Positions 7,196-57,040 of a DNA stretch of 64,000 nucleotides are shown here, in pieces. The stretch is taken from contig NC_086097.1 of the NCBI RefSeq assembly GCF_963921235.1, forward strand, positions 163,372,001 to 163,436,000. The letters are read 5' to 3'. The position numbers were made by a program, and so were the translations under genes. The DNA comes from Mobula hypostoma (taxonomy: Eukaryota). Positions within the stretch are counted from its first letter, which is position 1. The number at the start of each line of letters is the position of its first letter. The notes beneath the pieces were generated by a model. That model searched no databases, was not told where the DNA came from, and saw nothing but the letters and a program-made list of their open reading frames with translations.

Positions 7196-8172
7196 CCCTT
7201 GACCATTCTCACCCACCTGGTTTCACCTATCGCCTTCCTGCGAGCCTCCTTCACCTCCCCTCACCTTTTTATTCTGGCATCTTTCCCCTTCTCAGTCCTG
7301 AAGAAGGGTCTTGGCCTGAAACATCAACATTTTATTCTTTTCCATAGATACTATAGGTACATTTAATGTCAGAGGAATGTATATGATATACATCCTAAGA
7401 GTTTTTTCCTTTGCAAACATCCATGAAAAGTGCCCCAAAGAATGTATGACAGTTAAATGTTAGAACCCCAAAGCCCCCCCAGCTCCCCCTGTCTCACATA
7501 GGCAGTAGCAAAGCAATGACCCCCTTCCCCCACCAGCAATAAAGCATCTGCACCCTCCATTGAGCACTCAAGCATGCAGCAAAGCATCAATAAAGACAGT
7601 GCCCCAACGACTACTCGTTCACCCAGTATTTGACATACCATAGACTGTTTCCCCAATGATGGAAAAAGAGGTGTCCCTGTTTGACGGTGAAGGGAGATGT
7701 GACAAAATGACTCGCCGATTTATGGTGATAAGTCTGCTGCATCGCTTTTTCCGAGCTCTGTGCCCAAAGATCTTGGGTCTCTGGGCACACAGCCAGCTTG
7801 CTGCTTTCGATCTTCCATCTCTCATGACGCACCAGACATTGGCACTGACCTAGAGTCTGCCCGCCTCCAGAGCCATGAAAATCTGGTACCCTGAAGGCAT
7901 GCTAGTTTTCCAGACTGCGTCCTTGGCTTATCGAAAAGCGCCAAATCGTGAGACCCCAAGAGCGGGTTCCATTTCAGCAAAGAACCAAAGTCAGAGTGTA
8001 ACTCCAGGTCAGGGTCTTCAAAATAACCCAAAAAGGAAAGAAATGTTAAAGATAGAAATAGAGCTGTTTTCAAAGACGCAAGCAAAGGAATTGCAGTTGG
8101 GTGCCATTGTCCTCCTAAGCTGTGCCCTCTATACTGCCTGACCTGAGTTTCTCCAGCACTTTGTGTGTTGCT
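7196..8172 (+). mobile_element. Older PLE 3' end with degenerate hammerhead, split by the 7356-8118 insertion
   Basis: 'cagtc ctgaaga agggtcttggcct gaaacatc' at 7293-7325; resumes at about 8130 with 'tactgcctgacctgagtttctccagcactttgtgtgttgct'. Confidence 0.75.
7356..8118 (-). mobile_element. Unclassified non-autonomous (SINE-like) element; second partial copy at 18327-18440
   Basis: 'ggtacatttaatgtcagag.aatgta....atatacatcct' shared with 18336-18376; no coding capacity; interrupts a PLE fragment. Confidence 0.6.
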
Positions 8173-10311
8173 GTAGATAAGTCACCTGGATCAGATGAAC
8201 TACAATCCAGGGTTTTGAAAGGGGTAGCTGAAGAGATTGTGGAGGTATTAGTAATGATCTTTCAAGAATCATTAGGTACTGTAGTGGCTCCTGAGGGCTG
8301 GAAACCTGCCAATATCACTCCACTCTTTAAGAAGGGAATGAGGCAGAAGAAATGAAATTTTAGGTCAGTTGGCCTCACTTCAGTGGCTGGACAGATGTTG
8401 GAGTCTATCGTTATAGGTGAGGTTCTAGGGTACTTGGAAGCACATGATAAAATAGGCTGACATCGGAATGATTTTCTAAAGGGGAAATCATGCCTGACAA
8501 ATCTGTTGGAATTCTGAGGAATTAACGAACAGAATAGACAAAAGAGAATTGGTAGATGTTTATTTGGATATCCAGATGGCCTTTGACATGGTGCCACACA
8601 AGAGGCTGCTTAACAGAATAAGAGCCTGTGGTGTTATGGGAAAGATACTAGAATGGATAGAAGACTGGATGAACGGTAAGAGGCAAAGTGTGGGAATAAA
8701 GGGAATCTTTTCTGGTTGGCTGCAAGTGACTAGTGGTGTGCAGCAGGGGTCGGTGTTGGGACTGCTGCCTTCCACGCACGTCAATGATGTGGATGAAGGA
8801 ATTAATGGGTTTGCAGCCAGGTTTGCGGACAATAAGATGAGTGGAAGGGCGCGTAGCATTTGGGAAGCAGGGCATCTGCAGGAGGACTTGCGATAATCTG
8901 CAAAGAAGTGGCAGATAGAATATAATGTAGGGAAGTGCATAGTCATGCACTTTGGCAGAAGGAATAAAGGTATGGACTATTTTGTAAATGGGGAGAAAGT
9001 TTAAAAAAAAAATCTGAATTTCAGACAGACTTGGGAAGATTCTGTGGTTTATCATGCAGATTGTATCAGTGGTGAGGAAGGAAAATGCAATGTTAACATT
9101 CATTTTAAAAGTACTAGAAAACAAAAGGACGGAATGCTGAGGCCTTGCAAGGCATTGGTCAGAACATATTAAGTATTGTGAGCAGTTATGGGCCCCTATC
9201 TTAATGGATGGGCTGGCATTGGAGAGAGACCAGAGGATGTTCACAGGAATGAAAGTGTCACTGTATGAGGAGAGCTTGACTCTGGGCCTGTGCTTGTTGG
9301 TGTTCAGAAGAGTGAGAGGGTGCTCTCATTAAAACCAATCAAATATTGAGAGATCTGGAGAGGGTATTTCCTATAGTGGGGGAGTCAGTTTGGAGGGCAC
9401 AGCCTCAGAATTGAGGGATGTCAAATTAGAACAGATGAGCAAAAATTTCTTTAGCTAGAGTGTGGTGAATCTGGAGTTTGCCACAGCTGGCTGTGCACAT
9501 CAGGTCATTGTGTATGTTTAAGGTGGAGTTTGATAGGTTCTTGATTAATGGTTATGGGGAAGAGACAGGAAAATGGGGTTGAGACCGTGATGAAATGGTC
9601 TATATCTACTCCTAGATCTTATGGAAACGGTAATAGCAGAATAGTCAAACACCTTCATTTTCACTGGAGGTCTTCAGTAAAATTCCAGAGTTGTTGGGGA
9701 ACAAGATTCTGAAGGTGAGGAACTAAAGAAAACTAGCACAAGAGTAAAATTCCAGTTATTGACACAAAGCAAATCTAGAAGCCCCAATGGTTTGGCAAAT
9801 AGTTCATCTGTAATACTGGCTTTGACCCCTTTCAACTCACTAAGCTCCATTTCCCGCACATTTGAGCCACATTCTCATGTTCCCATTCAATACACCGTAG
9901 CCCTGGTTACTGCCCTTGCTTTAAATGGACCAAGTGTTCTCTCTAAACTTAATAGATTTAATAGGGAATTTATTATAATACAGTATGACATCTAACAATT
10001 GTGAATTCAGATTGTTTTGGGGGTGGTATTAACATCTAGTATTCCAGAAAATCTGCTATTCTGGCACTACCAAAGTCCAAAACATGCTAGATTATCAGAG
10101 AATAGTGCTGGAGAAATGAATGGTACTGAAAACGATCAATCTTTGGGCTCTATTCCTCATCTCAAAGTATTAAATGAGGTAGTGTGGGAATAGTGACTAT
10201 ATTATTTGTTTTCTAGAATGGATTATGGAAGATCAGATTATAGAACAAATTTCACGACACATGTCAGTGTTAATAAACCTTTGTCTGAGTGCAGTAAATG
10301 TAACCCCAATA

Positions 10312-11086
10312 CAGTGGATTTTGGTTAATTGGGCCATTGGTTAATTGGGGCAGCCAGTTGTTTGGTTCAACTCTTAAAGAACAATAACTAATAGAGAAAA
10401 TAGCCAAAATTCCCTTTGTTTATTTGGGACTATGCCACTTAAGTGAGGCAGGAGACTTTTTTTGAACAATTTCCAATTAGCATCAGTCATGTACTCTTGC
10501 TTTCTGTGCTTCTAGCTAACAATTTATAAGTGACGTCAGTTGTGTATGTTTGTGATCAAAAAGCAGCAATTTTTGTCACTGATATTTGACGATAATAAGT
10601 AGTAAATCAATTCAGAACTGTTTTGCTCACCGCAGTTTCATGCATTCAGTCTTGGAGATCCCAGAAATGGCCAGGACTGAAAATGAACTGATTTCACTAC
10701 TTCAAGTTAGGAACTGCAAAGGATATGAAAGTGTCGACAAACATCTTGAATGTTGCAATGAAAATAAATGTTTGCAGGACGCAGTCATCAACAGCTTTGT
10801 CTGAAGGCAGTCCATTATCTACACTAGATGTCTCTGCTGATTCTGTTCATTTTCAGTCAAAAGATTGTGGATGAATTCCTCCATCAGTAAGTATTAGGAA
10901 CTGATACAGTCTTGTACTGCAGCAGTATTGGTAGTGTTCTAATTTGTTCTGTATTTCATTTAAACACCTAATTTGTTCAGTTTGTTTTTTTTTGTCTCCA
11001 ACTATTTCCAAGAATCTTCAGCTAATTGGGGTAGCAGCTTAATTGGGCCAAAATGTACTGGTGTTGCAATTAACCAGAATCCACTG
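10312..11086. mobile_element. MITE of the Tc1/mariner superfamily (pogo/Tigger-like)
   Basis: 20-bp TIRs CAGTGGATTTTGGTTAATTG / CAATTAACCAGAATCCACTG (1 mismatch), TA on both sides; related fragment at 34120-34318. Confidence 0.85.
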
Positions 11087-15943: not shown

Positions 15944-15944
15944 T

Positions 15945-20132: not shown

Positions 20133-21741
20133 TGGTTGTTTCTAGAATTGCACTTTGAAACATTCCTTGGGTACTGATGAAGAATGATGAGACCTGAATT
20201 GTTAATCTTGCCACTTTCTCTACAAAATCTCTCAGACCCACTGACAGCTCTTAGCATTTTTGTTTAGTGTCTTTGATTTCCAGCACGATTTGAAACACTT
20301 TGTTCAGTGGCAAAAGCTCTGCAGTTCATGTTTTAGGTATTATTTGTTTACTTTTTGATTATTTGCACAATTTGTTCTTTTATCACACATTGGCTGTTTG
20401 TCAGCCTTGGTGTTTTTTTTGCGGATTCTATTGCTTTTCTTTGTGGGTGCCTGCAAGCAGTTGTATCTCAAGGTTGCATGAATGGTATACATACTTCCAT
20501 AATAAATTTACTTTGAACTTTATAATCAGTGAAAAGCTTTGGTCACAGCTTGTCATGTTCAGTAGTTGGACAAAACTTGTAGTCATGACAAATTCAGATT
20601 TCTTTTGACTTGTGTTTCTTCTGATCAGTTACAAATATTGGAGATAATGCTCTTAAAAGCATTATTACTACAGAATAATTCCAAATCCTATTGTCACTCC
20701 TAGTCCTTAATCCCATCTTTCTATATGTCTTAACTTTCAGGGTTCTTGTAGTAACTAATGATTGTTGGTCACCATAAGAGAGAAGAGAGTAGGATGCTGG
20801 TGTCTTAATGCAATAAACTCAGAATGTAATTGTCTTTATCTATTAATATAAAGTATATGGAATAGATTTCTTGACTTTATTTAAAAGTAACCAAATGCAA
20901 AATGTTATTCTTAATCAAAAAACTTGGGTATTCAAGCTCATTTTTTTTGTTTACAATCCCAGGTGGTATTAAGGTTGCTGCGACACTGTTGCACATCTTT
21001 GGTTGAGTCATTAAGCCACAAGTACATTCGGTTCAGAAAGGTACTTGATGGTCAGCACAAACATGGTGGGCCAAAGGGCTGTTTGACTCAATGACTTTAA
21101 GGGTGTAAAGAAATTCATGGAAGTATTTTATGAATAGGGGTAACGATCCCCATTTTCCTGGGCACTGTGAACTCTTCAATTCACAGTATTGAAAAGGTAG
21201 CTTTTTTTCTTGCCGTTGATCCTTGCTATATGAAAATTGCTAAATCAACGCATATCCTTCAGTGGTCCTGCTGTCTCCCCTCTGACCAACCTGCGGCATT
21301 ACCAAAGAGTGAGTTAAAAATTTAGTCACGTTGATGGTCTCCATCATTGTATTTTGTTCACTTACGTCTTTCAAGAAGATAATTTTTGGTTTAAAAACTA
21401 GGCACAAAGCAACAACAACTCAGATTTTATTGAAGTGTTGGGGTTCTTGCTCCAGAACAACAGTTACTATAGGTGTTATAGTAGGAGTAAAGGTCAGACT
21501 GTTGGAATTCATTTGGAGAAATCAGGCACAGGTTTGGCTATGCAGGGCACCAGAAGTCAATCTGAGGCAGTGATCCGAAATATACTGATGGCTGTCATCT
21601 CCCCCCCCCAACAGTTTCCTGTCTGTGGCCTTGTGTGCTGACAGAACATAAATCAATGCAGGCTGGAGAAACAGCGCCACAGCTTATGTCTGAGTATGTT
21701 TCATCTTTCTCCCTAAGATATTGAATTCTCTAATTTTACGC

Positions 21742-22469: not shown

Positions 22470-22648
22470 TTCCATTCCACTCAAATGTAACTTAATTCTC
22501 CCCCTCCACCCCCCCAATTTTGGTGAAGGGTTCCAGACCTGAAACATTGACCTTGTTTCTCTTTGAACAGATGCTGCCTGATCTTCTGAGTGGTTTCAGC
22601 ATTTCTACATTTACTTTACATTTCTAGCTGCTGCATAGTTTTGATTTT
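22470..22648 (+). mobile_element. Decayed PLE 3' end
   Basis: 'tggtgaagggttccagacctgaaacattgac...agatgctgcctga..tctgagt...cagcatt' parallels the young PLE end. Confidence 0.65.
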
Positions 22649-23597: not shown

Positions 23598-23773
23598 AAG
23601 TATCCAACAATGTGCTGGAGAAGCTCAGTGGGTTGAACAGCATCAGCAGGGGGAGAGGAATTTGTTGACACTTTGGGTCAAAATCCTGCATGAAAATTCT
23701 TGAGAAGTCCTGATGCAGGGCTTTGACAATTCCATTGTTTGAGACTTCAGCACCAACAGTCTCTTGTGTCTCT
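23598..23773. mobile_element. Decayed PLE-derived fold-back element
   Basis: Inverted 'gtcaaaatcctgcatgaaaatt' / 'agtcctgatgcagggctttgac' with PLE-end flanks. Confidence 0.55.
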
Positions 23774-27960: not shown

Positions 27961-28970
27961 TGATAGATTCTTGGATCTGTTCTGGTAAACCTTTTTAGGA
28001 TATTTATATTATTCTTAAATTGTGTTAACCAGAAATGAACAGATTTCTTCAAAATACACAAGCTTGCATATCACGCAAACAAAGCCCGATTTTCCTCTTC
28101 AATATCAAGAAAGAAATGGACGTGGAGAGTGTACTGGTTACCTATGGCCTTCCGGTGAATCAATTCAAATCTGAGGTTGAATAGTGCTTTTTCCTTTTCC
28201 TAATGTTATATCCTTTGACAAAGGACCCTGGGTTATTTCATCTGTGCAAGATTCCTTTATAAACATTCCCTCCAGTCTTTCAAAGCACTGCTCTGAATTC
28301 ACTTTAAGTGAACACAGCAGGTTAGGAGAAGGTGAGTTAATGTCAGTGACCCTTCATTAGGATCTGAAATATCTCCTCTTCTCTCTCTGAGAATAATCTC
28401 AGTTTTTATAGTATAATTTATTTGCTAATTATTTGGACCCTAACTTGACACATCTATATCCTTTGAGGACTTTATGTGAACTTTACAACTTACTTCTCCT
28501 TCCTGTCTGACCTGCTGAGTATTTCAAGAATTTTCTTGTATATTTCAAGTTTGCAGCATCTATACTATTTTTGTGTTGTATTGGTATTTACCTCATCCAA
28601 ACAATGTTTCTAATCCATCAGCAAGGTTTTCCCTTTACTGGCTTGTATGGGCTTTTTTAAAAATCTTCCTGTCATTGATACATCTGTAGTATTGGTAATC
28701 AAAGGAGGAGTTGCCACTTAAGGCGCTCATGTTTTCAGTCACTGACGCACCCTGGGTCACAAAATTGGCTATAGCATTGATATATCCAGGGATCCTGGAG
28801 TCCACGTTCATTGCTGTCTGAAAGTGGATGCACAAATCGATAGGGTGGTGTAGAAGTTGTTGGCACTGAGCTCAAGAGAGAGGAAGTAACATTGCAGTGT
28901 TATAAAACTTATTTCGGCCACATCTGGAATGATTTCCCTGTTATAGGAATGAAGTAGAGGTTTTGGAGAG

Positions 28971-29191
28971 AACGCAAACAACAGGAATTCTGCAGATGCT
29001 GGAAATTCAAGCAACACACATCAAAGTTGCTGGTGAACGCCGCAGGCCAGGCAGCATCTCTAGGAAGAGGTACAGTCGACGTTTCAAGCCGAGACCTTTC
29101 GTCAGTCCTGACGAAGGGTCTCGGCCTGAAACGTCGACTGTACCTCTTCCTAGAGATGCTGCCTGGCCTGCTGCGTTCACCAGCAACTTTG
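28971..29191. mobile_element. Young PLE-derived fold-back element (84-bp arms, 2-nt spacer)
   Basis: 29022-29105 is the reverse complement of 29108-29191 with 3 mismatches; sequence matches PLE end 37602-37735. Confidence 0.95.
29103..29140 (+). ncRNA. Minimal type I hammerhead ribozyme
   Basis: CAGUC-CUGACGA-A-GGGU(CUCG)GCCU-GAAA-CG-UC^GACUG: full core, 5-bp stem I, stem II tetraloop, minimal palindromic stem III. Confidence 0.85.
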
Positions 29192-32248: not shown

Positions 32249-33764
32249 AGTGAAGCCAGGCACCACAGTAAGTCAACTACTTTGTTGTCCTTCTCTCACC
32301 CCATGCTAATTGCACATCTATTTTGTATGCGGAGCGTTAGCAGCTCTCCAAGTGTAATGTGCCCAGTGAACTGTGGTATTCTGGTATCATCCCAGTGGGC
32401 ACATGTTTTATTGCTCCTGATAGATATCGTAGAATTTTACCAGCATTTTAAACTGCCGCAAAACATAGTTTGAGGACATTGTCAATGACATCTATTATTG
32501 TTTGAAGGTCATTTCTCCATACTTTTGATCTCCTTTTAATTGGTATTCTCGATCGTCAATTTCAGTAGTTGTTATCCAAAAGAATTTTTTAAATTATTAG
32601 TCAATGCAGGAGGACTCTTGGTTAACTAATGACAAGTTTTCAAAATAAAATTTGTCACATCCTTAGCAATTTAATCAAACAGGGTTGTCTTCAGTGTGGC
32701 CCACTTATCCCTAAGTTCTGTTTTGCATTATGTACATTGTAGTTTTATAATCTCTTTCTTACAGTGGATTTTTGAAACAGATACCTCAAAGATTTACTGT
32801 AAGCCCCATCCTCACTTCTCACCCCAGCCACCCCTAACTCTAGGTTTGGAGTCCTCACAGAATAGCAGCTGGATTATTCCAGATGGGTAGCAGAATAGAC
32901 CCTTTCAAAATCTTGAAGATCTTTCAACTTGGAATGCAAAGATAATTAGTGAAAACAAGAGGAACTCTGGAACTGGGATTAATCTGCTTGTTCCTGAAGT
33001 CATGTCGATGCTCATAGTTCACAATTTCAAAAAAATTCTTTGACTGACAACAGCTCAGCTCTATCAGGTTCTCACCAGACTGCACAAATATGTGAACAAG
33101 TGACCAGGATCCCGCCAACCTATTATCTAAAAATAAACATGAAGTTACTGAAAATCACTCCTCCTCTGCTGTTATAAGACTATTAAATGGTTTCCTAGCA
33201 CCATAACATAAACTTTTGACTTCACGATCTATCTCGTTATGATCTTGCACCTTATTGGTCATCTGCACTGCACTTTTTAACTGTTACACTTTATTTTGCA
33301 TTGTTATTGTTTCCCTGGTTTGATCTTGATGCATTGTGATGATTTGAACAGCAGGTTTTTCACAGTATCGCAGTACCTGTGACGATAATAAGCCAATTCC
33401 AATACTAAAAACTCAATGCTGGAAGTACCTGGAGGGTCAGGCAATATCTATGTGAAAGAAACTAAAATATTAACTCTTCTCTTCCCACAGTTGATGTCTG
33501 CCCTGCTGAATGTTTCCAGTATTTTCAGTTTGTTTTGCAACTGTAATAATCCTCTTGAGTTCTTAACCCTATCAGGACCAACTTAGTCCCATAGTATAAC
33601 AAACAGAACTACTGTATACCTATTATTAAGCCATTATTCCCAGTTTACAGTCTGAGGGGAAGTTTTGCTCTTTGTTGTATGATTCCTGATACCACTCCCT
33701 GAGCACCCCAGTTCAGATGTTACAGTTCTGACACCTCTAGGGTTCTTTGCTAGGTTGTGGATCC

Positions 33765-34481: not shown

Positions 34482-34690
34482 GGAGATGCAAGAAACTACA
34501 GAATATGGAATCTGGGGCAACATACAAAAAACTGTAGGAACTTGGTGGGTTATGCAGCATTGAGGAAGGGAAATAGTCACATTTTAGGTCAAGACTGTTC
34601 TTCTGGACCAGAAACATCAACTGTCCATTTCCCTCTAAAGAAGCTGCCTGACCTGCTGAGTTCTGCAGCTTTTTGTATGTTTTTCTAGCC
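34482..34690. mobile_element. Decayed PLE-derived fold-back element
   Basis: Inverted arms 'acatacaaaaa...gcagcatt...gggaaat' / 'atttccct...agctgc...ttttgtatgt' around a 'gaaacatc' remnant. Confidence 0.65.
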
Positions 34691-36322
34691 TTACTATTGT
34701 TCTCATGAAAAGTGCTCTGAAATCTCTGGATTAGTCCGATGTGGGAACCTTGTATCATGACCCACATTTTCTGGACCTTTGAACAATGAGGCAGATTTTT
34801 GTGTTATATCACCATGCAATATGATGAATCTAATGCCCAAGGAACACTGAGGAATTCCATCTGTTATGGCACTGTTGCTCAGATGACTCATCAAGTTTGT
34901 GTGGTGAATAGATAAATCAAGCCAATCGTGGAAGTTCCAGCTCCAAACCAACCCTGTATCAGCAAGCATGGATCCCCATTGGTCCTGAGTGAAGTTCTGC
35001 ACGTGGAAAGTAGAAAAATGTGTCAGTTGGATGGTTCTCCTAAAGGAAAATAATAGTTTTAAATCACCAGAGGAAGATTATTGAAGAAAATATAAAAAGT
35101 CTTAAACATATTGAATAGGATAAATACTAATAAACAGGAGATCTGCTGTTTCACAGGCTGAGTTTAAAAAAAAACAGAAAAGCATGGAAAATAGCTTTGT
35201 TCGTATATGTGATCACCTTGTGAAGCCATGATTATCTAGATAGAGAAGTACTGATGTAGAACAATTTGGGGTGTACAGCTTACAGCTGAATGAAAGGACC
35301 TTATTTTTGGATATTAACATTTGCTAACTGTCTTGCTTGGCATATTTAAGACTAGTTATATCTTGTAGCTCTGGTCATGCTTTCCCATGACAGAGGGCAG
35401 ATTGCAGAGAAGGCAACAGACTGACAGGCGTGCATTTGCCCGAGGCAGGTTGAGACATGATGGCGTGCCGCTTAGTGCTGACTTAGGGCAGAGCTTTCTC
35501 CTGAGGTTCCTTGTCCTTTAAAGTGACAGATTTAGAGAGACAGAGAGCACATGGGTAAGCAAACACGCCAACTAGGCACTCTCTGCCATTTAACAGTTTC
35601 CTCAAACTGCTGACATTTTCATTTGTTTTTTGTGCCCTGGCCTTCACTGTCTCAGTCCATTCCACATGGATCCTACTGTCTGATGAGAAATGACAACACA
35701 CTTTATTTGTGGAACATTGTTATTATCTCATTATTGCACAAGTCGTTGAAATGACAAACATTGGGATATTTAGAGTGCATCAGGGAACTTCATTTTTTTT
35801 CTGAAGAGTAATAAGGATGTTGTATTTGATCTCCACATTATTAGACATTTCAAAGGTGAATTTGCTTAAATAAATAATGCCAATGCTTGCTTGCAGGTTT
35901 CCAATCAACAAAACCGGATCTATACAACAGGGGAGTTTCACTGCAGTACAGTGAGCATCTGAAAGAAAAAATATCAGTGTTTATGTTGTAAACTTTCAGA
36001 TGGATGCTTTGTTGCTGCAGCCCAGATGAAGGGTCCCAGTTAAGCCACAACCTGTTTTTCATCCATGACTGACCTGCCTTGTGTGTCTAACATTTTCTGC
36101 TTTTGTTTTAGATTACCAGCACTGTTAACATTTTCTCATGGCAGTTCATTTCAGTTTGTTAGCATTGACATTGATCAGGTTCATCTAGAAGTGACATGAT
36201 GCAAGGACACGTCTGTATTTTCCCTTGATGTTGGTCATGAGTGTTGGCTCAGAGCTGTGGTGCTCACACCTTGGCCTGCATACTGCCCAACTAACCAAAT
36301 TTAGTTTCAGTCACTGAAGTGA

Positions 36323-36563: not shown

Positions 36564-36565
36564 AG

Positions 36566-36577: not shown

Positions 36578-37700
36578 AGGTTTAGATGAACCTGAGATGG
36601 CTAACTGTCTGTTGATGCACAGACAATAGAAACAGTCATGCAAAAAAAAAGTGCAACTGTACTACTTTGGGAAGGGACAGACATTGTCGAGTTGGAAAAA
36701 AAAAAGCAGAAAATGGTTGACATTCACTGGTTCATAAGTGGTGAATACCAAGAGATAATAACATAGAGTTTAAAAAAGCAGAAACGACTAGCTGCATCGG
36801 AAAGATAGATGCATTCGATTGCACAAGTGATGACTGTATTTGTTTACTGAGTGAACTGAGTGGTATTTTAAAGCAAATTAAATGGCCAAAGCAAAGTGAG
36901 TGCCAGTGTTGCTGAGTATGTTAGATGGAAAGATGTACAGTTTGCTTGGAAGTTTGACTTCTGCAACTAATCCAGCCATAATGTATTTTGCTGATATCAT
37001 GAAAGTAGTGCCAGAACATTTAGAACTGAAACCATTGATTGTAGAATGCTTTGGGCTTCATAAGCAGAATCAAAAGGTGAGTCTACCTTGGTGCACATGG
37101 TTGAATTGAAGAGCATGGTCAGTTCAGTGGGCTTAATGACACACTGAGAGATTGTTTAGTTAGTGGAATCTTACAAGAAAACATTCAAAAATGGCTCCTA
37201 ACTGAAGTACAACATTTAAAAGAGCAATTGAAACACCTGTATCAATGGAAATGGCATACAGAGACACAATTGAGTTGCAGTCAGGAATGAAAGTGAGCTT
37301 GAATAAAATTCCAAGTTCTAAACAGAACAAATTGTGTTACTGTTGTGGCAGGGGCTCACATACACCAGACCAATGCAGATTTATCCACAAAGCTTACAGA
37401 AAATGCAATAAAGTAGGACACATACAAAGAGCATGTCAGGTAGACAAAAATAAATGGTCTGCACAGGGAAGAGAAAAATTAAAGTCAATTTACAGTTTCA
37501 AAAGGACCACTAATCTGCATGCTGCTGATGAAAAATCTGATGCTAAGTGATACAGGACTGGGTAGCCTTGAAATTTACAATGTGAAACTAACAATAGACA
37601 AGCAAACAACAGGAATTCTGCAGATGCTGGAAATTCAAGCAACATACATCAAAGTTGCTGGTGAACGCAGCAGGCCAAGCAGCATCTATAGGAAGAGGCG

Positions 37701-37738
37701 CAGTCGACGTTTCAGGCCGAGACCCTTCGTCAGGACTA
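37701..37738 (-). ncRNA. Minimal type I hammerhead ribozyme in the PLE 3' region
   Basis: Sense strand UAGUC-CUGACGA-A-GGGU(CUCG)GCCU-GAAA-CG-UC^GACUG. Confidence 0.87.
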
Positions 37739-38024
37739 ACTGAAGGAAGAGTGAGTAAGGGATTTGAAAGCTGGAGGGGGAGATGCAAAATGATAGGAGA
37801 AGACAGGAGGGGGAGGGATAGAGCCGAGAGCTGGACAGGTGATAGGCAAGGGGATACGAGAGGATCATGGGACAGGAGGTCTGGGAAGAAAGACAAGGGG
37901 GGGGGTGACCCAGAGGATGGGCAAGAGGTATATTCAGAGGGACAGAGGGAGAAAAAGGAGAGTGAGAGAAAGAATGTGTGCATAAAAATGAGTAACAGAT
38001 GGGGTACGAGGGGGAGGTGGGGCC

Positions 38025-40757
38025 TTAGCGGAAGTTAGAGAAGTCAATGTTCATGCCATCAGGTTGGAGGCTACCCAGACGGAATATAAGGTGTTGTTCC
38101 TCCAACCTGAGTGTGGCTTCATCTTTACAGTAGAGGAGGCCGTGGATAGACATGTCAGAATGGGAATGGGATGTGGAATTAAAATGTGTGGCCATTGGGA
38201 GATCCTGCTTTCTCTGGCAGACAGAGCGTAGATGTTCAGCAAAGCGGTCTCCCAGTCTGCGTCGGGTCTCACCAATATATAAAAGGCCACATCGGGAGCA
38301 CCGGACGCAGTATATCACCCCAGTCGACTCACAGGTGAAGTGTTGCCTCACCTGGAAGGACTGTTTGGGGCCCTGAATGGTGGTAAGGGAGGAAGTGTAA
38401 GGGCATGTGTAGCACTTGTTCCGCTTACACGGATAAGTGCCAGGAGGGAGATCAGTGGGGAGGGATGGGGGGGACGAATGGACAAGGAAGTTGTGTAGGG
38501 AGCGATCCCTGCGGAATGCAGGGGGGGGGGAGGGAAAGATGTGCTTAGTGGTGGGATCCCGTTGGAGGTGGCGGAAGTTACGGAGAATAATATGTTGGAC
38601 CCGGAGGCTGGTGGGGTGGTAGGTGAGGACCAGGGGAACCCTATTCCTAGTGGGATGGTGGGAGGATGGAGTGAGAGCAGATGTACGTGAAATGGGGGAG
38701 ATGCGTTTAAGAGCAGAGTTGATAGTGGAGGAAGGGAAGCCCCTTTCTTTAAAAAAGGAAGACATCTCCCTCATCCTAGAATGAAAAGCCTCATCCTGAG
38801 AGCAGATGCGGCGGAGACGGAGGAATTGCGAGAAGGGGATGGCGTTTTTGCAAGAGACAGGGTGAGAAGAGGAATAGTCCAGATAGCTGTGAGAGTCAGT
38901 AGGCTTATAGTAGACATCAGTGGATAAGCTGTCTCCAGAGACAGAGACAGAAAGATCTAGAAAGGGGAGGGAGGTGTCGGAAATGGACCAGGTAAACTTG
39001 AGGGCAGGGTGAAAGTTGGAGGCAAAGTTAATAAAGTCAACGAGTTCTGCATGCGTGCAGGAAGCAGCGCCAATGCAGTCGTCGATGTAGTGAAGGAAAA
39101 GTGGGGGACAGATACCAGAATAGGCACGGAACATAGATTGTTCCACAAACCCAACAAAAAGGCAGGCATAGCTAGGACCCATACGGGTGCCCATAGCTAC
39201 ACCTTTAGTTTGGAGGAAATGGGAGGAGCAAAAGGAGAAATTATTAAGAGTAAGGACTAATTCCGCTAGACGGAGCAGAGTGGTGGTAGAGGGGAACTGA
39301 TTAGGTCTGGAATCCAAAAAGAAGCGTAGAGCTTTGAGACCTTCCTGATGGGGGATGGAAGTATATAAGGACTGGACATCCATGGTGAAAATAAAGCGGT
39401 GGGGGCCAGGGAACTTAAAATCATTGAAAAGTTTAAGAGCGTGAGAAGTGTCACGAACATAGGTCGGAAGGGATTGAACAAGGGGTGATAAAACAGTGTC
39501 GAGGTATGCAGAAACGAGTTCGGTGGGGCAGGAGCAAGCTGAGACAATAGGTCGGCCAGGACAAGCAGGTTTGTGGATCTTGGGTAGGAGGTAGAAACGG
39601 GAAGTGCGGGGTGTGGGAACTATAAGGTTGGTAGCAGTGGATGGGAGATCCGCTGAACGGATAAATTCGGTGATAGTGTGGGAGACAATGGCCTGGTGCT
39701 CCTTAGTGGGGTCACGATCGAGGGGTAAATAAGAGGAGGTATCCGCGAGTTGTCGCTGTGCCTCAGCAAGGTAGAGGTCAGTACGCCAGGCTACAACAGC
39801 ACCCCCCTTATCAGCGGGTTTAATAATAAGGTTAGGATTAGTGCGGAGGGAGTGGAGAGCAGAGCGTTCCGAAGGAGTGAGGTTGGAATGGGGACAAGGT
39901 GCGGTGAAGTCGAGACGGTTGATGTCCCGTCGGCAGTTGGCAATAAAGAGATCCAGAGCAGGCAGAAGACCAGAGCGGGGTGTCCATGAAGAAGAGGAGG
40001 GTTGAAGACGGGAGAAGGGGTCATCGGTGGGGGTGGAAGAGTCCTTGCCGAAGAAGTAGGCTCGGAGACGGAGACAGCGGAAGAAAAGTTCCGCATCATG
40101 GCGAACACGGAACTCACTGAGGTGTGGTTGAAGGGGGACAAAGGTGAGGCCCTTACTGAGAACAGAGCGTTCTGCCTCCGACAGTTGAAGGTCGGAGGGG
40201 ATGGTAAAGACCCGGCACGGATGAGAGCTGGGATCAGAGGGGGGAGGGGGGAGGCTGGGTGTGTCAATGGAGAGGGGAGGGTTGGGGTGAGAGGAAGATG
40301 GAGCCTCTGAGGGCCCAGGAGCTGACGGTGGGATCTGAGGGAGACGGGATTGCAGAGTATTGGTGGGGGAAGGGGAGACGGGAGTCACAACAGCAGCACA
40401 TAAAGACCCGGCCTGGAGTTCAAGGCTGGAATCTTGAGAGCTGGGATCAGAGGGGGGAGGGGGGAGGCTGGGGGTGTCAGTGGAGAGGGGAGGGTTGGGG
40501 TGAGAGGAAGATGGAGCCTCTGAGGGCCCAGGAGTTGACGGTGGGATCTGAGGAAGACGGGGCTGCGGAGTGGTGGTGGGGGAAGGGGAGACGGGAGTCA
40601 CAACAGCAGCACATAAAGACCCAGCCTGGAGTTCAAGGCTGGAGTCGCAGTTGGTGGTTGCGCAATCGCTGTGAAGGTGTCCATGGTTGTTGCTGGAATC
40701 CGGGTTTTGAATATGTCCTGAGGTGTTGGAGCCGCCGAGATCAATGGCAGGAGCCAA
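38025..40757 (-). CDS. PLE polyprotein: reverse transcriptase + Cys-rich linker + GIY-YIG endonuclease (N-terminally truncated, no ATG start)
   Basis: 910 codons with no stop; 'IKPADKGG', 'FYLLPKIHK', 'GRPIVS', 'MDVQSLYTSIP', 'GVAMG', 'YIDD', 'FLD', 'YYKPT'; 'CKRNKCYTC'; 'VIYCVRCSRCGLLYIGETRR...RFAEH'. Confidence 0.93.
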   Translation of the reverse strand: MAPAIDLGGSNTSGHIQNPDSSNNHGHLHSDCATTNCDSSLELQAGSLCAAVVTPVSPSPTTTPQPRLPQIPPSTPGPSEAPSSSHPNPPLSTDTPSLPPPPSDPSSQDSSLELQAGSLCAAVVTPVSPSPTNTLQSRLPQIPPSAPGPSEAPSSSHPNPPLSIDTPSLPPPPSDPSSHPCRVFTIPSDLQLSEAERSVLSKGLTFVPLQPHLSEFRVRHDAELFFRCLRLRAYFFGKDSSTPTDDPFSRLQPSSSSWTPRSGLLPALDLFIANCRRDINRLDFTAPCPHSNLTPSERSALHSLRTNPNLIIKPADKGGAVVAWRTDLYLAEAQRQLADTSSYLPLDRDPTKEHQAIVSHTITEFIRSADLPSTATNLIVPTPRTSRFYLLPKIHKPACPGRPIVSACSCPTELVSAYLDTVLSPLVQSLPTYVRDTSHALKLFNDFKFPGPHRFIFTMDVQSLYTSIPHQEGLKALRFFLDSRPNQFPSTTTLLRLAELVLTLNNFSFCSSHFLQTKGVAMGTRMGPSYACLFVGFVEQSMFRAYSGICPPLFLHYIDDCIGAASCTHAELVDFINFASNFHPALKFTWSISDTSLPFLDLSVSVSGDSLSTDVYYKPTDSHSYLDYSSSHPVSCKNAIPFSQFLRLRRICSQDEAFHSRMREMSSFFKERGFPSSTINSALKRISPISRTSALTPSSHHPTRNRVPLVLTYHPTSLRVQHIILRNFRHLQRDPTTKHIFPSPPPAFRRDRSLHNFLVHSSPPSLPTDLPPGTYPCKRNKCYTCPYTSSLTTIQGPKQSFQVRQHFTCESTGVIYCVRCSRCGLLYIGETRRRLGDRFAEHLRSVCQRKQDLPMATHFNSTSHSHSDMSIHGLLYCKDEATLRLEEQHLIFRLGSLQPDGMNIDFSNFR
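40222..40645. repeat. In-frame 213-bp tandem duplication in the PLE ORF
   Basis: Units begin at 40222 and 40435; encode two 71-aa Pro/Ser-rich units 'DSSLELQAGSLCAAVVTP...SDPSS'. Confidence 0.95.
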
Positions 40758-44170: not shown

Positions 44171-44174
44171 CTCA

Positions 44175-45243: not shown

Positions 45244-45319
45244 GGCTATACATTGTAACTCACCAAGGGGAGAAGTTAATATACAGCATCATCAGATTGA
45301 AAGAAAGTGACAAACAATT

Positions 45320-45545
45320 GGCTGGAGGAAATCAAATGGTCAAACTCATGGTTGAGCAGTATCTGTGGGGGGAAGAAATTGTTTCCACCCATAACACCAA
45401 CACGGAGCATCAGGACTGAAGTTAGGATTTTGATCTGAAGCATTAACAATTCCTTTCCCTCCACAGATACTATTTGACCCAATGAGTTCTTCCAGTAGAT
45501 GGTTTGTTGCTGCAGATCCCAATATCTGTAGTCACTTGTGTCTCT
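45320..45545. mobile_element. Decayed PLE-derived fold-back element
   Basis: 'gctggaggaa...agtatctgtggggggaag' inverted against 'ttccctccacagatact...ttcttccag'; 'catcaggact' hammerhead remnant. Confidence 0.65.
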
Positions 45546-47068: not shown

Positions 47069-48368
47069 TTACACACCTACAAACAATCACCAAAACATAG
47101 TAGCAGCAACACAGTTTGGAAGCCAGAGAGAACTTTTCCCACGCTCTTATCTGTTATCTGCTGCCTTACCAGTATCCCCAATGGCAATTTCATTTGAGCT
47201 CAGAGCTTGGGCTGGAGCCTGGACTTCCCTCTTGGTCAAGTTCAGAACCACAACAGCATCTGTAATTTGGCCAGGAAGCCATTGGGATATTTTAGTCCTG
47301 TAATTAAAATAATTTTCTAACTTTGTCGCACGCTGGGCTTCTGTGAGCTTGATGACTGCTGCTTGGCATAACTGGGAGGCCTGGAACTTAAAAAAGATGG
47401 CAAGAGCTGGTTCTCTGCTTTTTGCACCTTTTTTTGAAGTTTATTAGTAGTAGAAATAACAGAATCCAACAGTCAGTGAAATGCAAAGGCCACTGACTAT
47501 GCAGTTTGACTCAAAATTCCAATTTGTGCATTACTAGTTCATCCATTTTAAATTCAAAAATATTAATGAAATAAGGCTCTGTGAATGCAGTAGATCTCCA
47601 GAGCAATACAAGTACTTTAACAGATGCAATCAATCAAAGATCTTTTAGAGTTTCCTTTCCTTTGCTGTGGTAACTGTTCTTTCTGGAAGGAGGAATCCAG
47701 ACCTAACTTTCTTTGTCTGTCCATACACTAAATGAGATGCACTAAATGGCAGTCAGGAGGGAACAGACATTGTCTTCTAGGTCATGTCATTCTGTATTCT
47801 GGCATTGAAAAAGATTACCACACATCATTATGCATGAGTGTTTAATAAAAAGCATCAACTTCACACACCACATGGAAACCACATTCCACCTGTATGATTA
47901 ATTCATACTAGCCAGCAGGCAGTTAAGTCAAGTGGAACAGGAATTAAAGGAGGTTAGCTTCCAATTACTGACTTTATTGCAAGATAAGGGCACAACTTCA
48001 TTCTTCAGGAGTTTCCTATAAACACAATTGAGTTTGAAAAGTGGTATATTAACCCTTAATCCTCCAGTGCCATTCAACAAACCAGAAATTGCTTCGAGTT
48101 GAAACTCGTGATAGGTTGATGCTGTTCCAGTGATCTGTTTGAAGTACTGTCATCAATTTTCATCAAGACCTGATCACTGACAAGATAACATAAAACACTA
48201 TTTGTGCACATCCAAATGCTTTTGCTACAGTGTGGATAAGTGGCTTACAGTTTCCATATTCGTAAGAGTCACAGAAATTTCATGGATTAAAAAAAAACAG
48301 CCTTATCTAATTTACATCAAAGTTGCTGGTGAACGCAGCAGGCCAGGCAGCATCTCTAGGAAGAGGTA

Positions 48369-48406
48369 CAGTCGACGTTTCAAGCCGAGACCCTTCGTCA
48401 GGACTA
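48369..48406 (-). ncRNA. Hammerhead ribozyme motif (weakened stem II)
   Basis: UAGUC-CUGACGA-AGGGUCUCGGCUU-GAAACGUC^GACUG. Confidence 0.75.
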
Positions 48407-48933
48407 ACTGAAGGAAGAGTTAGTAAGAGATTTGAAAGTGAGAGGGGGAGGGGGAGATCCAAAATGATAGGAGAGGACAGGAGGGGGAGGGATGGAGCCA
48501 AGAGCTGGACAGGTGATTCGCAAAGGGGATATGAGAGGATCATGGGTCAGGAGGTCTGGGGAGAAAGATGGGGGGGGGTGGACCAGAGGATGGGCAAGGG
48601 GTATAGTCAGAGGGCCAGAGGGAGAAAAAGGAGAGTGAGAGAGAGATGCCCCACCTCCCCCTCGTACCCTATCTGTTAATTATTTTTATACACACATTCT
48701 TTCTCTCACTCTCCTTTTTCTCCCTCTGTCCCTCTGACTATACCCCTTACCCATCCTCTGGTCCACCCCCCCCCCCATCTTTCTCCCCGGACCTCCTGTC
48801 CCATGATCCTGTCATATCCCCTTTGCCAATCACCTGTCCAGCTCTTGGCTCCATCCCTCCCCCTCCTGTCCTCTCCTATCATTTTGGATCTCCCCCTCTC
48901 ACTTTCAAATCTCTTACTAACTCTTCCTTCAGT

Positions 48934-48971
48934 TAGTCCTGACGAAGGGTCTCGGCTTGAAACGTCGACTG
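48934..48971 (+). ncRNA. Hammerhead ribozyme motif (weakened stem II)
   Basis: UAGUC-CUGACGA-AGGGUCUCGGCUU-GAAACGUC^GACUG. Confidence 0.75.
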
Positions 48972-49391
48972 CGCCTCTTCCTAGAGATGCTGCCTGGCCT
49001 GCTGCGTTCACCAGCAACTTTGATGTGTGTTGCTTGAATTTCCAGCATCTGCAGAATTCCTGTTGTTTGCTTATCTAATTTACTTCCTTTAAAACAAGAT
49101 TCTAATTATAAAAGGTCAAATTTGTGGAAAGAGATCACAAAATCCCCAGTAATATTCCTGGCATCCTGTGCAGCTAAAAAGAGAATCTGACTAATTCTGA
49201 AATGGAAACAATCGTCCTGTCTATAGAATCAACATTCCCTGTATTTTACGGGTAAAGATTGTTTTAGTGGCAGACTAATCAGTGTTTCGCTAGTTAGTGA
49301 GATGATCCCGATCAAGTGATTGGAGTTTATAAATCTTAAGGGCACCTTTGTTATTGGATGGTCAGTGGTGCTTGAAAAATAAATCAATAAA

Positions 49392-51805: not shown

Positions 51806-54544
51806 AGATGGGAAGATGCACTTGGTGGAAGATGACTCAAGCATCAGACAGATGCTGCCCTCCACAGTAGGGACACAGTTCATTGTCTAGCAGGAGTCAC
51901 TGATTCATGATTGCTGACTGAGTTTCCTGGCCTTGGCTGAGGAGAGGTCATGATGCAGCCGTTGAAATCCGCAAATTCAACATGAGCTGGGGATTAAACC
52001 CAAATGGTTGCCTTGCATTTACACCAAACTGCACCTTCGCCGTGCGGAATCACCAGTGTTTTTCTGATTTTACTTATGCCACTAAGCTGCTTAACAAGGT
52101 CTCCATGATTTTAAAATGCCTGAAATGTCAGTAGAGCAGAGGGAGGATGCTCTGCATGTGATCTTAGTTGGCAGGATCCAATGCCCTTCACAGTTGGAGT
52201 GTGACCTCCTTTCTTGAAAGGGGTTGGTCCCATGCCAATGTTGACCAGTTGTCAGTAACTTCTTTCAGCACTTGTCAAATTGAGAGTGTGAAAGAACAAA
52301 GACTGGAGGTGAACTGAATATTTAAGATTAGTCTTCAGCTGTATATGTTGAAAAGCAAATTGGACTTCATGCTGTTTGAAACTGAGAGTAAGAGAAAGCC
52401 TGCATAACTTCTCATGGAGCAAGTGTATTTTAATCAGACAAGGAGAGTTAAATAATAAATTACAAGATTTAGCCTGGTGCTAATCTTCATAGACAACAGC
52501 CAAAAATTAAGAATACAATATCTTAGATTTCATACTGTAATTTTTAAAAATTTAAAATGCAGTAGTAAAGTTGGCAGAACATTGGATTGTGTGACAAACT
52601 AGGTTGGGTTGTTGGTCTTGCTGTGTGTCAGAAGGAGATGCAAGTGTTTTCAGAAAACGTAAGTCATCTGCTGAATGGAGAAATGATATGAAGTTAAAAC
52701 TTGTTACAAACAGAAGCTGGTCAACCTTTATTTCTTCTTTAGTCTTCATATTCTCATGCCACTCAATATTCCTGTTTTGTGACAAAGAGTCAATGACATT
52801 TTAGCTGAGATTTGGGGTGTAGTAGCATGAGGAGTTGAACTTAAATGTCACCACTATATTGTGCCATCAGAGTTCAAATTAATTCTAGAAGTACAAGTAT
52901 CTGACTATATACTACCTTGAGATTCATCAACATTCCATAGAATATTAAATAGTTGCATAATCCACTTCCCTTGCTGTTGTGCAAAGTGAGAATTAATCTA
53001 ACAACCAAACATGCAGACTTTTACCGTCACAACTTAACTAAAAGGACACAATGAAAAGATGCCGAAGCCGTGGGTATCCCTGTGACATCTGTCATTGCTC
53101 TTCACAGTAGTAGTTCTTTAATGAAATTTATGCATAATTGGAATCTTTCCATTTTGCATCACCACTGAGAGTTGTGGATTCTCACAGCCCGTGTTTAGTG
53201 CTTGGTTGAGAAATCAATCAAACTGATGAAAGGAAGATGGGCAAGGGATTATTTTGTAAATACTTCAGCACAACTGAGACATCAGATTAGATTATCTCTA
53301 TATTGCAATAATTGAATGATTTTTTTTGCTACAATATCCAAGACCCAGCCAGTTCCTGAATTTGGCCAGAGAGTCAAGGAGAAGCATTTATTCATCACCA
53401 AGACCTCATTTTTTCCAATCTGTGCAACATTGCCTGTGCTGGCCCAATACATTCTCATACTAAATGTTCCAACTGGCTGCTGATCCTTCACACGCTCAAG
53501 TTTTGCTGAATGTAATTACCCAGATCTTTTCCAATACTAAGTAACATCCAATCAGTCTTTCATCTTTGCTAAATTTCACTCTCTGTACCGAAATACATTA
53601 GCACCACGTCTGCTGTGCCCAGATGCACAATGTTCTCCAGCAGTACTTGCCCTTTCACATTATGGCTCTCCAATTCCACCAATGTAGGTTTCCTCTCCTG
53701 AACAAACTGCTCTCTCATTGTTTCGCATTGGCTTGCTTATGTCCCTTTCTCAATCTGTTTCTTTAATATTTCTTTAAAATGTCTTGCTGATAGTCAGTAC
53801 TCGTGCTCTGAGTTATCTGATTTGTCTTAACCCATCTCCAAATGGGAGTCTTTCACTTCACTCCTGCCACCAGCTCTGCTGTGCTCTCCATTCTCTCCCC
53901 TAGTTCTGGGGAAGGGTTGCTGTCTCGAAGCATTGACTCTTTCCACAGAGGAGTTTGACTAGCTTGGCTCTTCCAGTGTTTTCTTTTTCTTTTTCAGATT
54001 CTAGCATCTACAGTTTTATTTGTTTTTACCCCAAGTGTCCTCTTTAGACACTCTTGCATAACCTTAAATTCCCTTTTAAAATATTAAATCTTACTTAGTT
54101 TTTTCTCTTTGCAGGTCTCTTGGGCTATTTTCTCCTTAACAACCTCCATTATAAAATATACTGGACTTTTGTTTTACATTAATAGTATCTATAACTGCAA
54201 CTAACGCTTTTCCATACTTCTGTACAAACAATATGCTGTCATAGCAGCCATACTATACATATGTAACAATAGCTTGACATCCTGTTTTCTCTGCTACCAG
54301 CTCCTATAGATATCTGCCCATTGTCTGTTGCATAGTTACATCTTCCTTTTGCATCATACCAACTTAGCTTCTATGTGCTGATGGAACTTGTTAAGTTATC
54401 TTTATCTAAAGATCTAGGGAATGCAAGTCTTATAATAACAGGCATCCTGTCATGAGAGCTTCTGTTATGTACACAGCCATTCCCTCTCAAATAGTAGTTG
54501 CTCCTTTGCCCAAGCATGTACTTGCACAACCAATACCAAGAATA

Positions 54545-56097: not shown

Positions 56098-56479
56098 CCT
56101 AGTTTCAATTTTGTTTCTTCACCATCATGGCTGGTTTTGCAGCATTAAGTGCAGAAGCTGAGAACATTTTGCACCCTCAGCTAATGAATGCATCTGTAGA
56201 ACCCCTGCACCAGAAGATAAGTGGAAGATAATATCACTATTCATAAAACATAATCCCTTGAAACCTGTTAACATAAACACAGTACTTAAAATTAATATTG
56301 TTGCATTTTTAATCAGGAATGATAATTTAAATAATTATTGATGGATGCTCAACATCCATTAAGTCACTAAAAATGTTAATTCAACAATATTTTATTGCCG
56401 TATTGAGTAAATTTGAAAAATAATTTGTCAGGTATGAAGTACTTTGTGGTATGACAAATATGTAAAAAAGGGCATTATA

Positions 56480-57040
56480 TAAATCTCAGCAAGTCAGACA
56501 GCATCTGTGAAGAAAATAGTTAATTTTTCAGGTCAATGACTGTTCTTTAGAACAAAATTGACATTTAATGTCAATGACCTTTCATGAGTTCTGAAATACT
56601 CAGTTCCTCTCTCTACAACTGCTGCCTGATCTACAGTGTTTGTCATTTTTTCTTTTTGTTTCATATTTTCAGGATTTGTGATTTCTTGCTTTCCCACTAT
56701 ATAAATGCATTTTTATGTCCGATTTATTGATACAGTTTTTGCAGTCATTGCTCTTCCACAGATTTAATTTCTTCTGCAACGAGCAGTCTGTTGGAGGAAC
56801 TCTGGGTCAAGCAGCGGCTGTGGGAGGAGAAAATAACGAATTGCCTTCAACTCCTTTGTGTGTTGCCCCAGATTCCCAGCATCTGCAGTCTCTTGTCTCC
56901 TGTTCATACTTCAGAACCTGATGGGGGTTTTCAAACCAAAATGCCATCAATTTCTTCCCTGCCTCCGACGTTGCTTGACTCACTAATTCCTCCAGCAGAT
57001 CGTTGCCCCAGATTCCAGCATCTGCAGTCTCTAGTGTCTC
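56480..57040. mobile_element. Cluster of decayed PLE-derived fold-back elements
   Basis: 56480-56690 ('cagcatctgtg' / 'ctgctgcctga') and 56775-57040 (two copies of 'gttgccccagattcc.agcatctgcagtctc'). Confidence 0.6.

Follow-up and report, generated by a model that had tools for sequence, protein, structure and literature searches.

Ends of truncated Neptune-like Penelope copies in Mobula hypostoma pile up at helix I of their hammerhead motif, where the template RNA may begin

The 64,000-nt stretch of contig NC_086097.1 of Mobula hypostoma analysed here, hereafter the window, contains many short non-coding inserts derived from the 3' end of a Penelope-like element (PLE), and the question raised by this locus is why so many of them end or turn at a hammerhead ribozyme motif. 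The first-pass annotation had read them as a long-lived family of fold-back elements with a ribozyme-linked insertion route, an interpretation that is partly supported by our results. We consider it somewhat better than an even chance (about 55%) that each insert arose by its own 5'-truncated insertion and that the accumulation of ends at the start of helix I probably reflects a template RNA starting at this point, where the reverse transcriptase (RT) would run off. On the best reading, the ribozyme marks this site and does not cut there.

A source-type copy lies within the window, a long solo Neptune-like Penelope copy on the minus strand (37602..40752) recognised from its open frame, Pfam, its atlas neighbours and longer genomic copies, compared with which ~560 nt are missing at its 5' end; it had not been named in the first-pass annotation. 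Its order is RT, CX4CxxC linker, GIY-YIG-type endonuclease, pyrimidine-rich 3' UTR, hammerhead and tail. The open frame (38025-40790, 921 aa) contains ADKGG, YIDD, VIY...LYIGET and C/C/H/H as judged by eye; the Pfam match to RVT_1 in this copy (E 3.5e-5) is under the curated cut-off, and the atlas neighbours of its protein are RT/GIY-YIG clusters at 0.97-0.98. As in endonuclease-positive PLEs, a single ORF carries a PLE-type RT, the DKG motif and, C-terminally, a GIY-YIG domain with CCHH, and the layout is also that of PLEs, with pseudo-LTR partial tandems, an inverted 5'-truncated copy and a one-sided 30-40-bp tail. The in-frame zinc-finger linker CKRNKCYTC agrees with the Neptune-clade pattern CX2-5CxxC, a motif common to Nematis; according to the part of PMC8557442 dealing with this linker, it is absent between RT and endonuclease in Penelope/Poseidon. 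The linker motif points to a Neptune-like Penelope. Positions are given below as ref N along the minus strand of this copy, the window position being 41401 - N. The tail (ref 3763-3799, 37602..37638, minus strand) was delimited by the outer ends of the second arm and by tandem copies, in which it continues into the 5' part of the ORF. Second-arm outer ends lie at ref 3752-3770 in 46/55 pairs, with two preferred ends at about ref 3763 and about ref 3799, and target duplications of at least 8 bp (mode 13-15 bp) accompany 65/95 copies.

The minimal type I hammerhead motif occupies ref 3663-3700 (37701..37738, minus strand) and has the architecture described in PMC4209133. CUGANGA and GAAA boxes, helices I and II, a palindromic helix III and the GUC triplet are all present in the sequence, and the predicted cut falls after C3695, between 37706 and 37705. 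No Rfam hammerhead family was matched, and the hairpins gave only sub-threshold miRNA and snoRNA matches.

All three young inserts that had been reported are present as head-to-head pairs, and two of them turn at the hammerhead as claimed. The pair at 28971..29191, with the tail on its left arm, turns at a 2-nt spacer (29106-29107, ref 3664/3668) and lacks a clear target duplication, and the pair at 30965..31164, with the second tail subfamily, turns in helix II (31079-31090, ref 3676/3685) between target duplications of ~15 bp with one mismatch. The third (48314..49070, first placed at 48316) has a 12-bp target duplication but turns at ~48647 (ref 3378/3428), where the 3' UTR begins, a point ~290 nt upstream of the hammerhead. 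For older copies, a profile was built on the PLE 3' end; the reversed window, used as control, gave zero matches to it. All 12 older sites listed by the first-pass annotation aligned to the PLE end at or near the proposed places (E 2e-15 to 0.004), and two further old sites were detected by the profile at 8131 and 14142. The idea that many of the sites are inverted pairs held for five of the old ones by profile and two more by eye, and the remaining five are solo. The profile pairs are those near 33415 (33410..33539, mean turn estimated at ref 3695), 34482 (34496..34687, ref 3675), 45320 (45302..45531, ref 3662), 56480 (56484..56672, ref 3657) and 56775 (56777..57027, a complex insert with inverted arm, tail fragment and direct arm). 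Those completed by eye are a minus-strand copy with a short opposite arm, turning near the 5' edge of the hammerhead (23598..23730), and a decayed pair whose right arm, 28502-28561, was found by profile and whose left arm by eye (28310..28561). The solo copies, all on the plus strand, are at 7196..7352 (3' UTR and hammerhead, core from 7297; E 4.6e-10), 20174..20285 (weak, E 0.004), 22470..22635 (pyrimidine tract upstream, E 2e-15), 36023..36121 (weak, E 0.003, second arm not detected by profile) and 53880..54013 (E 9e-9). The inserts are thus 5'-truncated Neptune-like Penelope copies with the head-to-head arrangement and single-sided tail already known for PLEs. Their density, read as special by the first-pass annotation, is ordinary for the genome: the 64 kb here hold 18 inserts, and evenly spaced stretches totalling 240 kb hold 47; young copies number tens of thousands genome-wide.

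Breakpoints were mapped in a main sample of 100 young copies picked by their tail, the first 30 loci being excluded from the counts, as they were chosen with a query across the hammerhead. A spike at ref 3662 is partly aligner run-through over a quasi-palindrome, and the counts use resolved ends. The distribution is strongly non-uniform, as the annotation predicted, and centres at or just 5' of the hammerhead. In the 55 inverted copies of the sample, the deeper arm ends within the 21-nt stretch ref 3655-3675 in 27 and within ref 3655-3700 in 34. Per nucleotide and per 100 arms at risk, tail-arm ends amount to 1.59 in ref 3655-3675 and 0.12-0.47 in five other bins. A 233-arm set including the second subfamily gave the same peak. 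Arm-end maps and folding place the hot spot at ref 3658-3669 (37732..37743, minus strand), with its maximum at ref 3664-3665 (37737-37736), overlapping the 5' strand of helix I and a predicted hairpin loop; we take its sequence to resemble both initiator and splice-acceptor motifs. The turning point is also kept across ages, since 21/30 old pairs turn in ref 3650-3700, and in old short solos the consensus persists for the three bases 5' of the core and is lost further upstream. The stop had been regarded as peculiar to fold-backs, but solos peak at the same place (12/39 end in ref 3648-3671), so that it is not a fold-back feature.

The same ends bear on whether the ribozyme creates the template end by cleavage and drives fold-back insertion, perhaps as a self-propagating family. 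Genome-wide ends were counted as two-base patterns per position, raw and then roughly corrected: 194 and ~440 at 3634/5, 402 and ~1300 at 3649/50, 1160 and ~2900 at 3661/2, 2714 and ~9600 at 3663/4, 3730 and ~9800 at 3665/6, 455 and ~1200 at the cut site 3695/6 (true junctions in 24/30 inspected), and 316 and ~1350 at the control 3704/5. The peak thus exceeds the cleavage site about 8-fold, and the cleavage site equals its control 9 nt away. None of the 39 solos ends in ref 3672-3698, and in the in vitro work described in the relevant portion of PMC11167929 ribozyme mutants insert normally. In favour of cleavage, 7/110 arm ends of inverted pairs fall at ref 3694-3698, whereas the following 22 nt hold 5. 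This small excess may be explained by local palindromic sequence. Self-propagation is contradicted by 12 loci that share one junction and differ in haplotype, outer ends, flanks and spacer orientation, with private changes shared only within a locus; identical junctions recurring with different haplotypes and target duplications indicate that no such family exists. The cleavage explanation is therefore largely refuted. The suggested self-cleavage of the hairpins also fared badly, as the predicted probability of helix I was 0.0 in the folded 28971 pair. The hairpin, if transcribed, would probably bury the ribozyme. In predicted folds of RNA starting at ref 3664 the probability is ~0.3, and with 43 extra upstream bases it is 0.0007.

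The relation between the two arms indicates how pairs arise. Within pairs, the arms differ at 9/214 diagnostic sites, against 3378/7574 between pairs, and 8 private changes are common to both arms in 39 pairs; a few pairs do differ at diagnostic sites, as does locus L335. Both arms share one haplotype, that is, one template. Their inner ends are also coupled: in 25 pairs both lie in ref 3655-3700 and in 16 both are long, while the two mixed classes hold 1 and 0 (Fisher p 1e-10); the remaining 13/55 pairs have an end outside both bins. A shared haplotype and coupled ends are also expected from one cDNA folding back, which counts against our reading. However, the tail-less arm is deeper in 35/55 pairs, so that each arm holds bases absent from the other and neither is a plain copy; plain snap-back is disfavoured. 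In the rival that we take most seriously in this respect, though we consider it rather unlikely, the cDNA stalls at about ref 3664 on a longer RNA, folds back and is copied, and a short second cDNA gives the tail. Candidates for the road-block are a hairpin at ref 3649-3679 and proteins occupying either the ribozyme or the pyrimidine tract with its AG. This rival would account for the single haplotype and the coupling of ends with no need for a defined RNA end, the peak does sit in the predicted hairpin loop, whose pyrimidine arm is also found in old families, and one 2-nt-spacer junction makes up 12/50 tight palindromes. Yet this junction is split evenly between the two orientations (6 each), the junction expected from snap-back on the native hairpin was seen in only 1/50, and perfect loop-less palindromes in only 3/50. 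Microhomology is absent at 26/49 resolved junctions and present at 23/49 (6 with long inserts were set aside), the stability of the hairpin does not exceed that of shuffles (z -0.21), and a structure should halt the enzyme at the 3' base of the hairpin (3679) and not in its loop. Self-priming of an antisense transcript with its 3' end near ref 3664, the origin suggested for Penelope palindromes of rotifers in the part of PMC3846280 on head-to-head repeats, would likewise yield one haplotype and coupled ends, but it leaves unexplained why solos share the 5' end and carry a target duplication. Moreover, the stem is absent at many junctions and, in the experiments reported in the corresponding part of PMC11167929, sense RNA is used, and we regard this origin as very unlikely.

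In the preferred reading of independent insertions on an RNA that begins at helix I, the endonuclease would nick both target strands, and the two target ends would each prime reverse transcription of a shared RNA from one or other of two internal start sites. The two cDNAs would then run off the RNA 5' end, at ref 3664 in the short class and at a break in the long class, and be joined with few bases lost, matched or added; where a single cDNA is made, a solo stub would result. For a lizard PLE in vitro, the sections of PMC11167929 on insertion describe nicking and extension of both strands, two internal starts bounding the tail, and no need for ribozyme cleavage. Within this model, the RNA 5' end would most probably arise by transcription initiation in the pseudo-LTR, an origin with a modest preference over exonuclease trimming halted by the ribozyme fold and over an end linked to splicing. 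Two results count against a start site: no cap-derived extra G was found at the peak (~15/100 rows at pattern 3663/4), and only 1/8 long copies reaching the upstream pseudo-LTR begins at the peak. The peak is also broad (ref 3658-3675, with a shoulder down to ~3647), and 50/98 tail arms run beyond ref 3655, which indicates that many templates reach further upstream. A more tentative proposal is a strong-stop-like cDNA, in which a protein dimer would prime both target ends near the 5' end of one mRNA starting at the first base of helix I, and the two run-offs would join to give the inverted repeat characteristic of PLEs. Here the upstream hairpin would keep the ribozyme unfolded except in RNA starting there, and the hammerhead would therefore be a start-gated 5'-end fold and not a processing enzyme.

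A splice-linked origin, in which helix I marks the end of a spliceosomal intron and the cDNA end is fixed by bound splicing factors or by intermediates of the reaction, was also weighed and appears unlikely. The upstream sequence presumably reads as branch point, pyrimidine tract and AG (ref 3661 and 3665), and 54 long copies of old families retain the pyrimidines and CAG (C 0.89, A 0.94, G 0.76). Nevertheless, none of 183 arms starting in ref 3655-3672 is a spliced cDNA copy with an exon joined at a GT donor, and contigs of presumed RNA runs, queried with the ORF body, gave no GT..AG joint among the joints listed. The ends are mostly G3661, A3664 and G3665 rather than the first exon bases 3662 and 3666, and the G is kept in 69/100 (pattern 3661/2) and 74/100 (pattern 3665/6) rows. 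In addition, the entire 3' UTR is pyrimidine-rich and the AG is needed by helix I itself. In Penelope of D. virilis, the start lies well upstream and the intron end maps to the 5' end of helix I (PMC2377424, PMC4209133), which favours splicing and counts against a start site at helix I.

In L1 twin priming, cDNA is primed from the two target ends on a single RNA and short homology joins arms without overlap, whereas here each arm covers the same stretch of at least 100 nt. Related systems include the complex PLE insertions of Craig et al. (2021, PMC8557442 fig. 2) and the elements Pen2a_Av and Pen2 (Arkhipova et al. 2013, PMC3846280), which, in the portions of these papers considered, share the 5' truncation, head-to-head inverted copy, 30-40-bp tail at one end, target duplications and pseudo-LTR hammerhead. 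Those portions contain no genome-scale map of inner ends, and PMC3846280 attributes palindromes to antisense self-priming; the inverted layout, tail and target duplications were thus already known, and it is the inner-end peak at helix I, the coupling of the arms and the avoidance of the cut site that set our data apart. PAc of Anolis (Frangieh et al. 2024, PMC11167929) shares, in the corresponding sections, the two internal RT starts bounding the tail, extension from both nicked strands in vitro, dispensable ribozyme cleavage and a tail overlapping the ORF 5' part, but it belongs to Poseidon and its ORF begins inside the ribozyme, whereas our element has a CX4CxxC linker of Neptune/Nematis type and its ORF begins downstream; cDNA 3' ends and inverted products lie outside the coverage of those sections. 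Metazoan PLE hammerheads of the minimal type I (Cervera and de la Pena 2014, PMC4209133) share the core boxes, short helices I and II, a palindromic helix III needing a dimer and very high copy number. That study proposes precursor RNA cleavage, whereas no sign of cleaved templates is seen in the genomic ends here. Animal non-LTR retrozymes (bioRxiv 10.64898/2026.07.22.740005) share PLE origin and are non-coding and hammerhead-bearing, but form head-to-tail arrays with a ribozyme per unit, while our copies are solo or head-to-head stubs, each made anew. Assignment to the non-LTR retrozymes was rejected, since the window contains no head-to-tail hammerhead array and the arms are head to head.

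On the host side, the inserts are ordinary repeat debris. No host gene was indicated by a Pfam match above the curated cut-off in 120/331 non-repeat window frames and 30/488 flank frames, the host intron considered by the first-pass annotation gained no support from these frames, and neither a PDB sequence search nor a phage collection gave a match. Near-perfect hairpins of at least 80 bp are common genome-wide and would supply dsRNA where transcribed. For the element, the young copies act as a fossil primer-extension experiment: they place the cDNA end at helix I, show one template and a common stop for both arms, and speak against cleaved RNA as the template. The origin of inverted pseudo-LTRs and the role of the PLE hammerhead are open questions in the relevant passages of PMC8557442 and PMC11167929. 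Base-level predictions follow for the in vitro PLE system and for 5'-end sequencing, and the copy ends thus offer a testable clue to the insertion of a poorly understood class of elements.

Copies of the Penelope-like element (PLE) end preferentially at the front of its hammerhead ribozyme, at positions that we number along the minus strand of the long copy in the window (ref N = window 41401 - N). On this ruler the minimal hammerhead occupies ref 3663-3700, with the predicted cut after C3695. In the host genome of 3.48 Gb, an exact motif of the one-sided tail occurs 11,453 times for the first subfamily and 4,947 times for the second. The first 100 of the 11,453 matches, selected blind to the junction and all located in the initial 30 Mb of a single contig, comprised 55 inverted pairs, 39 solo copies, 4 others and 2 that were cut off. 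Their breakpoints are not uniform: the deeper arm ends at ref 3655-3675 in 27 of 55 pairs, solo copies end at ref 3648-3671 in 12/39 cases and at ref 3672-3698 in 0/39, and there are 1.59 ends per nt per 100 arms at risk in ref 3655-3675 versus 0.12-0.47 elsewhere. This peak, at the 5' edge of helix I, was reproduced in a set of 233 arms that included 90 added second-subfamily loci. The first-pass annotation had placed the turning point near the ribozyme across age classes, and this applies to the old pairs too: 21/30 have their turn in ref 3650-3700, counting pairs with both arms detectable and no more than 1.5 kb apart. Agreement with the old consensus among 45 old short solo copies is 0.84, 0.78 and 0.71 at the three positions preceding the core, and 0.49 and 0.29 at the two positions beyond those. 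Ends also gather, less strongly, around the stop codon (ref 3325-3400, window 38001-38076), where a 75-nt stretch receives the 5' ends of 15 of 120 long arms and each neighbouring 75 nt receives 4; this secondary cluster includes the turn of the insert at 48314-49070 and could reflect RNA breaks near translation termination. Short added pieces, which are copies of the target duplication or of the element's own first bases, are found at many 5' junctions (L221-L250 and L400-L439 among the collected loci).

The position of the peak was compared with the cut site by counting, genome-wide, the copies whose match starts in a chosen two-base window of the reference. Raw counts, with corrected figures in brackets, were 194 (~440) at the upstream control ref 3634/5, 402 (~1300) at 3649/50, 1160 (~2900) at 3661/2, 2714 (~9600) at 3663/4, 3730 (~9800) at 3665/6, 455 (~1200) at the cut site 3695/6 and 316 (~1350) at its control 3704/5. 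The corrected figures are rough, as they were adjusted by hand for the chance of a flank passing the pattern (0.25-0.56), for the share of true rows (24/30 at the cut site, 81/100 at its control, about 90% at 3663/4, 19/20 and 20/20 for others) and for the pattern match rate, the 3664 rate being assumed for its two neighbouring patterns. On these rough counts the peak is about 20-fold over the upstream control, and the cut site is equal to its control and about 8-fold under the peak, which argues against a link through ribozyme cleavage. Broken down by letter among the matches listed, the two-base counts are highest at A3664 and G3665, where the Watson-Crick pairing of helix I starts.

Four features coincide at the peak and cannot be separated from DNA alone: helix I itself, what we take to be initiator-like sequences at A3660 and A3664, AGs at ref 3661 and 3665 that presumably resemble splice acceptors, and the loop of a weak predicted hairpin. 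One reading of the DNA ends and the fold prediction is that the RNA would begin at the peak, at a putative transcription start site. In its favour are the rise in ends at A3664 and the retention of the same edge in old families, and helix I is predicted to be accessible only if the RNA begins there (0.3 versus 0.0007); however, the peak is broad, half of the arms extend past it, just one long tandem copy out of 8 begins at it, and a cap signature looked for at the ends was not seen.

The two arms of a pair point to one template. When the arms of 39 pairs are set against each other, 9 of 214 subfamily-diagnostic sites differ, compared with 45% between pairs, and 8 private changes are common to both arms. 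The inner ends are coupled (both in ref 3655-3700 in 25 pairs, both long in 16, mixed in 1), 46/55 pairs have their second arm's outer end at ref 3752-3770, and target duplication length peaks at 13-15 bp. In 35 of 55 pairs it is the tail-less arm that reaches deeper, so one arm is not simply a duplicate of the other. Resolved junctions (n = 49) showed microhomology in 23 cases, blunt joining in 6 and 1-12 added bases in 20. For a lizard PLE, the consulted text of PMC11167929 reports nicking and extension of both strands, cDNA synthesis from two internal sites bounding the tail, and normal insertion by ribozyme mutants. Given the lizard and arm data, the simplest model would be double priming on one RNA, with cDNAs that would run off at its 5' end and then be end-joined. 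Fold-back after a road-block is a serious rival, as it would also yield one haplotype and coupled ends. Tight palindromes number 1,242 genome-wide, and the first 50 of them include 12 of the type of the young insert at 28971, 3 perfect palindromes and 1 of the type predicted from snap-back on the native hairpin. Twelve loci with the same junction differ in haplotype, outer end, flanks and spacer orientation (6 and 6); identical junctions are therefore recurrent events and not a self-propagating family.

In the window, all three young inserts are head-to-head pairs, as annotated; two turn in the hammerhead, but the turn of the third (48314-49070) falls where the 3' UTR begins. A 3'-end profile matches 12/12 of the listed old sites and two further old copies absent from the first list (8131-8178 and 14142-14240), with no match on the reversed window. 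Of these 12 old sites, seven are inverted pairs (five by profile, two by eye) and five are solo. The window contains 18 inserts in 64 kb, and 47 were counted in 24 stretches of 10 kb spaced evenly over the genome, so that the density is a genome-wide property.

The long copy (37602-40752, minus strand) has an open frame with RT, CX4CxxC linker and GIY-YIG-type endonuclease, and by the clade features set out in the consulted text of PMC8557442 its sequence is classed as Neptune-like, not Poseidon. Other genomic copies show this one to be truncated by ~560 nt at the 5' side, and show the tail continuing into the beginning of the ORF, an arrangement shared with tandem PLEs. Within the ORF, the proline-rich N-terminal region holds a 213-bp in-frame tandem duplication (40222-40646), across which only some long copies align like the window copy. 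The surrounding window is mostly decayed LINE-type repeats, and the copy sits in an old Gypsy-like LTR element (37200-37601 and 40753-42700). Five other young copies (L001, L003, L004, L006, L009) have the same 3' flank with different 5' ends, and in four of them the 5' flank is also visible, 71-90% alike. The shared flanks of these six hint at a preferred target site resembling the tail end, although the search query contained five flank bases and the flank occurs in 0/100 unbiased copies.

A transcribed pair is predicted to form an extended hairpin (-173 and -162 kcal/mol) within which helix I is unable to form, which would make the suggested self-cleavage from inserts unlikely. According to the consulted text of PMC4209133, minimal hammerheads also depend on dimer formation and show weak activity in vitro. 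Neither contig matches nor the scanned subset of non-repeat frames of window and flanks revealed a host exon. About 26 kb before the window, L151:4235-5229 contains three open frames that overlap one another, each roughly 300 aa long, in sequence that is not repeat-masked; they have only a borderline DUF6727 match. Low-depth contigs of run X1 match window 46758-47099, 51148-51414 and 63175-63414 without difference, mostly outside masked repeats, and may be pre-mRNA or DNA.

A search of mostly open-access papers, in their main text, found no earlier description of 5' ends concentrated at helix I, and fig. S2 of PMC11167929 may bear on this. Overall, this is the known PLE insertion pattern, non-random, in a further element, and the addition is that ends lie at the ribozyme front and avoid its cut site, with the two arms of a pair coupled in where they end.
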